From Escherichia coli (GTDB lineage Bacteria; Pseudomonadota; Gammaproteobacteria; Enterobacterales; Enterobacteriaceae): DNA of 64,000 nucleotides. Positions 18,301-18,964 of this stretch are shown piece after piece. Below the pieces are notes generated by a model, which was given only the letters and a program-made list of their open reading frames with translations, made no database searches and had not been told where the DNA came from. A program made the position numbers and the translations under genes. Within the stretch, counting starts at the first letter, position 1. Each line of letters starts with the position of its first letter. The stretch lies in the NCBI RefSeq assembly GCF_001677475.2, contig NZ_CP015229.1; one strand, written 5' to 3'.

Positions 18301-18504
18301 ATGAGAAATCATACCACACACCCGCAAGGGCGGGACTCGCACAACCTGAATAAATACATCTGGCGTTTTATCGCCCTGAGCACGGCACAACCGCGCGTAA
18401 TTCACATCGTGGCCACCAGCGAACAGGAAGCGCGTCAGCAATCTCCTGATGGCTGCGTGATGGTATTCGCCGCCCGTATTCGTCAGGGGTCACATCATGC
18501 GTAA
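18301..18504 (+). CDS. Small Icd/Ash-like protein (copy 1)
   Basis: 67 aa; ATG with GAGG RBS; C-terminal motif ...EQEARQQ...VMVFAARIRQG shared with downstream copy. Confidence 0.4.
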   Translation: MRNHTTHPQGRDSHNLNKYIWRFIALSTAQPRVIHIVATSEQEARQQSPDGCVMVFAARIRQGSHHA

Positions 18505-18790
18505 AAACCGCTTGCAAAAAATTATCACGGGACTGTATGCTTCCCGCGTCACCCACATGGTGACCGGGTTTGACAGCCTGAATACTACAGCGGACAGCCG
18601 CTTACATTCCGATATGCGGTTTTTTTGTGTCCGTAAACCTACCCATACCCGCATTATGGCGGGGCGTAACGGGGGAGCCTTTGCGCTCGCTGGTTCCTGT
18701 AGTGCCAGTCTGTCAACCCTGTTACGTCTCGCCACCATGTTTGACAGCGTAGTAGCGAGACTCCTTAATTTCACTACAGGAGCCTTTCAC

Positions 18791-18964
18791 ATGGCTGTAT
18801 CCACACGCCCTTATTTTGTCTGGCGCTTCATGCAGTGCCATGAAAAACAAACCTCACTCTTTACCGTCACGGCTGCCACTGAGCGCGAAGCACGCGCGCA
18901 GCTGCCGCACGCACATCTGATTTTTGTCGCCCGTATCCGTCAGGGGGTAAACCATGTTCAGTAA
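18791..18964 (+). CDS. Small Icd/Ash-like protein (copy 2; start uncertain)
   Basis: C-terminal ...EREARAQ...LIFVARIRQG paralogous to copy 1; could start at an upstream Met. Confidence 0.35.
   Translation: MAVSTRPYFVWRFMQCHEKQTSLFTVTAATEREARAQLPHAHLIFVARIRQGVNHVQ

Follow-up and report, generated by a model that had tools for sequence, protein, structure and literature searches.

Why does the early operon of a phage satellite carry two related small genes in a row, and what fills the space between them? This question is raised by positions 18301-18964 (+ strand) of a stretch of Escherichia coli DNA of 64,000 nt (NCBI RefSeq assembly GCF_001677475.2, contig NZ_CP015229.1), called the window below. 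A sequence-only reading had described the region as two tandem, paralogous small open reading frames (ORFs). The element that harbors them is a satellite of the capsid-forming, helper-embedded type of phage-inducible chromosomal island (PICI). Our analysis confirmed that both ORFs are real coding genes and paralogues of the Icd/Kil family, here called icd1 and icd2. They probably flank a complete antisense RNA immunity cassette of the P1 immI/P4 type, located in the early operon of the island; the RNA between the two copies had been overlooked in the earlier reading.

As the gene that opens the early operon of the PICI, icd1 occupies 18301-18504 (+ strand, 67 amino acids, Icd-like), and the short form of icd2 extends from the ATG at 18791 to 18964 (+ strand, 57 amino acids, Icd/Kil-like). 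In BLASTP the two proteins shared 19 of 48 residues (40%, E 8e-12). The common C-terminal block noticed before was recovered also at the DNA level, where 19 of the 21 nucleotides in the codons for (A/V)ARIRQG are the same in icd1 and icd2. Both proteins matched the NCBIfam model NF033153 (phage_ICD_like, host cell division inhibitor Icd-like) over all 48 profile positions, Icd1 with 71.8 bits (residues 19-62, profile 1-48) and Icd2 with 55.0 bits (residues 9-51, profile 1-48); the curated cutoff is 25 bits, and the controls P1 Icd and P4 Kil scored 52.6 and 76.1 bits, respectively. When Pfam was searched with E values up to 1, no family was found for icd1, icd2 or the 155 amino acid ORF described below, and no Phage_ASH match appeared. 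Therefore, of the Icd/Ash-like relationship proposed before, the Icd half holds and the Ash half is unsupported. Both genes are under coding-type constraint, since the ratio of non-synonymous to synonymous polymorphism (pN/pS) was 0.19 over the 41 unique sequences of icd1 and 0.35 over the 22 of icd2, and the third codon positions of icd2 showed excess variation among the cassettes.

P1 Icd binds FtsZ via core residues 12-51, the minimal inhibiting segment, which consists of three strands and one short helix (PMC11897509). NF033153 spans exactly these P1 Icd residues, and the equivalent segment is kept in both Icd1 and Icd2. An AlphaFold2 model of Icd1 gave a beta-beta-alpha-beta core (strands 19-26, 32-38 and 53-61, helix 41-46) with a pLDDT of about 90. 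By analogy with P1 Icd, and given the conserved core, we infer that both Icd proteins would inhibit FtsZ. A sequence-profile search of the PDB returned no relative (the best match, E 0.35, is meaningless), and a word-indexed protein search with Icd2 returned close E. coli relatives only. Minus-strand ORFs over the region (94, 62, 58 and 66 amino acids) and a 131 amino acid ORF at 17377-17772 gave no family matches. As a side observation, Icd/Kil-family proteins carry the misleading label 'transcriptional repressor' in PHROGs (phrog_6196, phrog_1743, phrog_6928), and one is labelled 'cI gene product', likewise misleadingly, in the P4 record NC_001609 (CDS 8168-8584). Such 'repressor' and 'cI' labels go back to a period when it was not yet known that the immunity factor of P4 is an RNA.

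Between icd1 and icd2 lies an RNA of the C4/CI antisense type. An Rfam scan of the whole window placed RF01695 at 18652-18739 (+ strand) with 72.3 bits over the full length of the model (1-87, E 3.9e-12; gathering threshold 45 bits). Over 18562-18749 (about 190 nt) the DNA shares about 80% identity with the c4 region of P1, and the stretch similar to P1 extends from the promoter -10 hexamer through the a2 site. Two elements of the RNA have complementary sites on both of its sides. The loop element b' (UCCUGUAGUG, 18695-18704, + strand) can pair at all ten positions with b2 (CACTACAGGA, 18772-18781, + strand) in the icd2 leader, and with its core also with b1 (ACTACAG, 18584-18590, + strand). 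The single-stranded a' element (CUGUCAA, 18710-18716, + strand) is complementary to a1 (TTGACAG, 18570-18576, + strand) and, with seven of seven positions, to a2 (TTGACAG, 18741-18747, + strand), which again belongs to the icd2 leader. The b2 site overlaps the Shine-Dalgarno sequence of icd2 (AGGAG, 18778-18782), 8 nt ahead of the ATG at 18791. The short Icd2 is thereby assigned its start, and the route by which C4 would block icd2 translation becomes visible.

Upstream of the RNA, the a1 and b1 sites are part of a decoy region resembling SeqA/IsrK (18535-18626, + strand), which consists of two hairpins followed by a terminator-like hairpin with a run of seven U. In the predicted minimum-energy fold of the primary transcript 18548-18800 (z -3.97), a1 and b1 were paired in cis with a' and b'. 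Two further complementarities to C4 were rejected as chance matches, a 9-mer at 18159-18167, which lies within a promoter -35 region, and a split one at 18415-18429, which is not collinear.

We compared the contact sites among related islands with 11 distinct cassette types. The a element occurred in two alleles (TTGACAG and TTAGCAG) and b' in eight versions with seven core recognition sequences. In every island the matching allele was found at the upstream site, as the complement in the RNA, and at the downstream site. Cognate b2:b' combinations formed 77 of 80 possible base pairs, compared with a mean of 6.8 out of 10 for non-cognate ones, and a pairing of 77/80 was reached by only 3 of 20000 permutations of b' among the alleles. 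P1 and P4 obey the same three-site match rule with their own alleles. Allele matching of this kind is the classic basis of P1/P7-type immunity specificity. The covariation at three positions thus provides evidence, drawn from sequence comparison, for C4 contacts with the a and b sites that are functional.

The distribution of the two genes shows that icd1 is the usual first early gene of the island family, and that C4 plus icd2 form an optional cassette at about 18497-18953. Among 77 informative IMG/VR loci with an icd1 at least 91% identical, icd1 stood alone in 72 and the tandem was present in five. Of the complete E. coli genomes, 1336 of 5426 (about a quarter) contained icd1-like DNA, annotated as Icd-like by the Prokaryotic Genome Annotation Pipeline (PGAP), and 224 of 5426 contained the cassette, in 140 of these with at least 80% of it covered. 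All 25 complete loci with this type of icd2 also have an icd1, at a fixed distance of 290 nt and of variable type. Conservation of both copies in related islands is therefore the rule wherever copy 2 occurs, and does not extend to copy 1, which is mostly found without a partner. In the cassette-free islands that were aligned, the next early gene follows directly after icd1 with the same overlapping junction; in at least one of them (L047) the gene joined to icd1 is a homologue of the 73 amino acid gene that follows icd2 here (18954-19175).

These data also bear on the simplest explanation of the gene pair, a plain tandem duplication yielding two host-manipulating early proteins, both expressed from the divergent promoter and without an RNA regulator in the gap. 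The paralogy of the genes is real, and both stand on one strand behind a single promoter region. Nevertheless, we regard this explanation as very improbable, the least likely of those considered here: the gap is filled by a full C4 RNA with matched targets, copy 2 is always accompanied by C4 and its target sites in a fixed cassette geometry, copy 1 is alone in most islands, and Icd2 is closer to P1 Icd (53% over 43 amino acids) than to Icd1 (40%). The pair is thus paralogous as first described, yet copy 2 came to light as part of a C4 cassette of the P1 immI/P4 type.

Further loci showed single, hybrid and double forms. L110 (icd at 2444-2644) and L111 (63-263) have a single icd with an icd1 N-terminus, an icd2-type remainder and no C4, as expected after a recombination deletion between both copies. 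L091, L094, L099 and L102 (about 1780-2670 in each) contain two modules in tandem, in the order isrK-like element, C4a, icd1, a1b1, C4b, icd2. Both C4 RNAs of these double-module loci scored above the Rfam threshold, and the modules differ in their a/b alleles, each being internally consistent.

The start of the second gene had been called unclear, and indeed two candidate ATGs exist for the ORF ending at 18964, one at 18791 (57 amino acids) and one at 18497 (155 amino acids), in a nested layout resembling kil/eta; for the short form the start is settled by the b2 overlap described above. The ATG at 18791 and the icd2 Shine-Dalgarno sequence were invariant across the cassettes, and gene callers in other genomes often choose a 56 amino acid form. 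The eta-like in-frame extension (18497-18790, + strand) comprises 98 codons. Its ATG overlaps the icd1 stop codon (ATGCGTAA), with GGGG 7 nt upstream, and it spans a candidate promoter, a1/b1, C4 and a2/b2 before leading into icd2. The extension was open in 21 of 23 unique cassettes, in which each of the other frames had 1-8 stops, typically 4-8. At the same time its pN/pS was 1.02, the same as in its other two frames, and there was no third-position bias. Therefore the frame is kept open and its amino acid sequence is not conserved, which is indirect evidence that its translation may prevent Rho-dependent termination, as at timm in P4.

It might be argued that the product of the long frame is itself a cell-killing or abortive-infection effector with a functional N-terminal domain. 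The openness of the frame in 21 of 23 variants and the long form called by PGAP would fit this possibility, which we nonetheless judge unlikely. The substitution pattern of the extension resembles that of the two other frames, its whole length is occupied by promoter, a1/b1, C4 and a2/b2, and it gave no meaningful family match; in addition, the internal Shine-Dalgarno sequence and the ATG at 18791, which are invariant and constitute the C4 target, as well as the frequent choice of the 56 amino acid form by gene callers elsewhere, point to the short protein.

The candidate promoter inside the extension (18512-18541, + strand; TTGCAA, an 18-nt spacer and TATGCT) is reminiscent of P1 P51b and P4 PLE. 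Its -10 hexamer TATGCT aligns with the annotated -10 hexamer of the P1 promoter P1c4. In the 23 cassettes the -35 hexamer was invariant, and the -10 hexamer was TATGCT in 21 and TATTCT in two.

Both icd copies are closed by the same junction, CGTCAGGGG..ATG, which gives the next ORF a Shine-Dalgarno sequence and an overlapping start, and at least six different genes were found downstream of it. The right edge of the cassette coincides with the end of icd2, where CGTATYCGYCAGGGG and then ATG are common to the icd1 end. As the junction is shared and serves varied next genes, the C-terminal block appears to be partly family conservation and partly a conserved joint for coupling and recombination. 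The next early gene here (18954-19175, + strand, 73 amino acids, phrog_5146) is a candidate for translational coupling to icd2, because its ATG overlaps the icd2 end. Separately, we observed that a G-run at the end of icd2 (18942-18948 and the equivalent in L105 and L109), which doubles as the Shine-Dalgarno sequence of the next gene, varies from five to nine G among relatives. Such a length change alters the reading frame, and the C-terminus becomes longer (long ORF of 168 or 228 amino acids); the variation could result from sequencing error or slippage.

Given these junctions, the Icd ORFs could be mainly leader ORFs that open the downstream operon by coupling and anti-polarity, with proteins that are only by-products, an idea put forward for orf45 of the IsrK locus. 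Both copies end in the junction while the downstream gene varies, and precedents exist in orf45-anrP (PMC4825925) and in the P1 annotation, according to which ant expression requires icd. We find this hard to believe as the main role of the genes. The low pN/pS values of both reflect purifying selection on amino acids, in contrast to orf45, which is conserved in nucleotides and not in amino acids (PMC4825925), and the core that is enough for FtsZ inhibition by P1 Icd is complete in both proteins.

In front of icd1, a divergent control region (18123-18203) with three operator-like repeats and promoters was found, which agrees with the location just after a divergent operator region given in the sequence-only reading. 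GTGTAAGACA(C) repeats are located at 18123-18132 and 18168-18178, with an inverted copy at 18193-18203. A promoter scan placed the sigma-70-like promoter of the icd1 operon (TTGACG at 18163-18168, an 18-nt spacer, TATGTT at 18187-18192) so that the operator-like repeats overlap it. The leftward promoter serves a divergent gene of the YlcI/YnfO family (17916-18140, - strand; 64.5 bits with YlcI_YnfO_N, NF041551). Across islands the repeat sequence switches together with this divergent gene, e.g. to GTGGCTGACA or TGGAATCCA. This joint change suggests that a putative island-specific protein repressor layer may act in addition to the RNA layer.

The icd1 leader (18231-18281, + strand) consists of a hairpin (18231-18265) and an invariant block, TCTAACCACCAACGATAG, at 18264-18281; the Shine-Dalgarno sequence GAGG follows at 18292-18295. 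The hairpin occurred in 34 distinct versions whose sequence diverges strongly between islands with the pairing retained, and six of eight RNAalifold pairs showed changes on both sides. It had no Rfam match even at E values up to 10. Hairpin and block sit where the double-C4 relatives have C4a and its a2 site (TTACCACC). The possibility that the hairpin is a truncated C4 was not kept; Rfam gave no match, and the alignment with C4a loci gave no clear picture. When the window was searched for an antisense partner of TCTAACCACCAACGATAG, only the block itself and matches with two mismatches at chance level were found (seven, compared with 3.9 expected; 11 of 100 shuffles gave as many).

How would such a locus work? 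By analogy with P1, P4 and IsrK, the internal promoter would give rise to a longer transcript from which C4 is released by processing. As in P1 and P4, it would then pair with a2/b2 and block icd2 translation, and the lost translational coupling together with Rho-dependent polarity would prevent expression of the replication genes further downstream in the quiescent island. Once the upstream operator-controlled promoter fires, ribosomes ending icd1 may restart at the ATG at 18497, as modelled on P4 eta. Translation through a1/b1, C4 and a2/b2 would override the RNA immunity and give a protein ending in Icd2, again on the pattern of eta, and both Icd proteins may arrest host division during induction, as suggested by P1.

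The annotation of P1 gives the reference order for this arrangement: promoters (P51a/b), a1, b1, c4, a2, b2, icd, ant1/2. P1 immI and the locus studied here agree in the order promoter -10, a1, b1, C4, a2, b2, icd with 80% DNA identity, in the identical a allele TTGACAG, in the position of b2 over the icd ribosome-binding site and in the overlap of icd with the start of the next gene. They differ in that the present locus has an extra upstream icd, whose stop overlaps the in-frame icd2 extension, has no C1 operator, has a different b specificity and belongs to a satellite and not to a plasmid prophage.

P4 offers, with its immunity region (PLL/PLE, seqA, CI RNA, seqC and the nested kil/eta), the parallel for the nested frame. 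In its eta ORF (8168-8812, - strand) the CI RNA occupies 8420-8507 and Kil forms the end. Here as in P4, a long ORF thus harbors a C4-family RNA and has an Icd-like peptide as its C-terminal 57-65 amino acids; in both, this ORF overlaps the last part of the gene before it, and replication genes lie downstream. According to PMC10111431, Kil is translated from an internal constitutive promoter under immunity control; full-length Eta requires the late promoter upstream, is coupled in its translation to the preceding gene and prevents termination when translated. P4 thus has an internal promoter inside the long ORF, whereas ours is a candidate. The gene to which the long ORF is coupled encodes the AlpA homologue ORF88 in P4 and would be a second Icd in our locus, and P4 has a single Icd domain. 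P4 also lacks a protein-operator layer in front, unlike the operator-like repeats described above, and the replication genes encode an alpha primase in P4 and an AAA_25 helicase in the present island.

The IsrK/orf45 (STnc1160)/anrP locus of Gifsy-1 in Salmonella likewise has a SeqA/a1b1-like element with its own terminator and a processed C4-like RNA within a small ORF, conserved at the nucleotide level only and translationally coupled to the next gene; there, as in the fold predicted here, the a1b1 part pairs in cis with the C4 part (PMC4825925). Unlike in Gifsy-1, the isrK match at our locus is subthreshold, and an Icd gene stands downstream in place of the antirepressor.

Several observations weigh against the interpretation of the locus as a complete immunity cassette nested in an eta-like frame. 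The decoy region matched Rfam c4-a1b1 with 42.1 bits (E 5.5e-9) under a threshold of 46.7, and isrK with 33.7 bits under a threshold of 50. The candidate internal promoter was not called by the promoter scan, because it matches the consensus at only 8 of 12 positions. The extension was interrupted in two of 23 cassettes and marked as frameshifted in two E. coli copies, and the open long frame could be partly due to chance or shared ancestry, the variants being 80-95% identical. Unlike in P1 immI, no antirepressor (ant1/ant2) follows icd2; the ANT, KilA and Bro families had no match in the genes directly after icd2. Finally, the PDB fold search returned nothing informative.

Concerning the host element, the icd region (18301-18964, + strand) heads the early (replication) operon of the satellite. 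The earlier placement among early satellite genes was therefore correct, but the element is not P4-type: the satellite, about 15.2 kb, sits in the large-terminase gene (terL) of a lambdoid prophage. Prophage TerL is split at 14882/30130 into an N-terminal ATPase part (13689-14882) and a C-terminal nuclease part (30130-30855), and a 21-nt repeat, GTGTATTGC(A/G)CTGTGTATTGC, is found near both island ends (14847-14867 and 30023-30043). The island encodes int (14822-16111), AlpA (16344-16652), Bro-N (16707-17303), the divergent YlcI/YnfO-family gene and the icd region, followed by DUF4222 (19631-19930), the AAA_25 helicase (19927-21336), SSB (21787-22212), capsid (23609-24754), portal (25276-26580), HNH (26872-27312), TerS (27460-27957) and the island's own TerL (27941-29602). 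The genes between icd2 and DUF4222 matched phrog_5146, phrog_24341 and phrog_2196, all of unknown function. Helper-embedded or capsid-forming PICIs share with this island int, AlpA, Bro-N, replication, SSB, capsid, portal, HNH, TerS and TerL genes as well as the terL insertion (PMC10111431; bioRxiv 10.1101/2022.09.08.507074). E. coli SCU-171 has a near-identical arrangement, in which PGAP names both genes Icd-like and the second is the long form marked 'frameshifted'. Just past the helicase gene (21332-21553), iteron-like repeats, AAAAAGTGGGG(N)GCAAAA, occur at 21335, 21420 and 21503, about 84 bp apart, and probably represent the replication origin of the satellite. In the prophage part of the window, upstream of the late genes, tRNA-Met (CAT) and tRNA-Arg (TCT) are located at 10380-10455 and 10555-10631.

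All components of the locus are known, as are C4-type RNAs in PICIs, and C4 and isrK Rfam matches have already been reported in some helper-embedded PICIs (PMC10111431); what is new about the locus is the way in which a known system is arranged. In the searched passages of PMC10111431 and bioRxiv 10.1101/2022.09.08.507074 there is no description of the Icd pair, of the boundaries of the cassette, of the allele system or of the double-C4 variants. Within the literature searched, what appears undescribed is the upstream icd fused at its stop to the start of an eta-like frame, and likewise the clean boundaries of the cassette, the system of a x b alleles in satellites and the double-C4 relatives.

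To our knowledge, the control of induction of these satellites beyond AlpA is poorly described. For a family of phage satellites that is widespread in E. coli, the early operon now has a concrete regulatory map that can be tested. Routine annotation is corrected as well, and the naturally covarying a/b alleles are a ready panel of candidate orthogonal antisense switches. As a tentative overall reading, which we put forward as a possibility rather than as the expected outcome, the icd/C4/icd unit may serve PICI satellites as an RNA 'immunity barcode' that is modular and recombines, with its full double form, C4a-icd1-C4b-icd2, in relatives. If so, the CGTCAGGGG..ATG end common to every icd gene would be the joint for cassette swapping, and the extra upstream icd, coupled to the eta-like frame, would serve as a translational override by which an induced island escapes its own RNA immunity. 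Which islands or phages exclude or silence each other would then depend on how a and b alleles are combined, with at least 2 x 8 combinations here.

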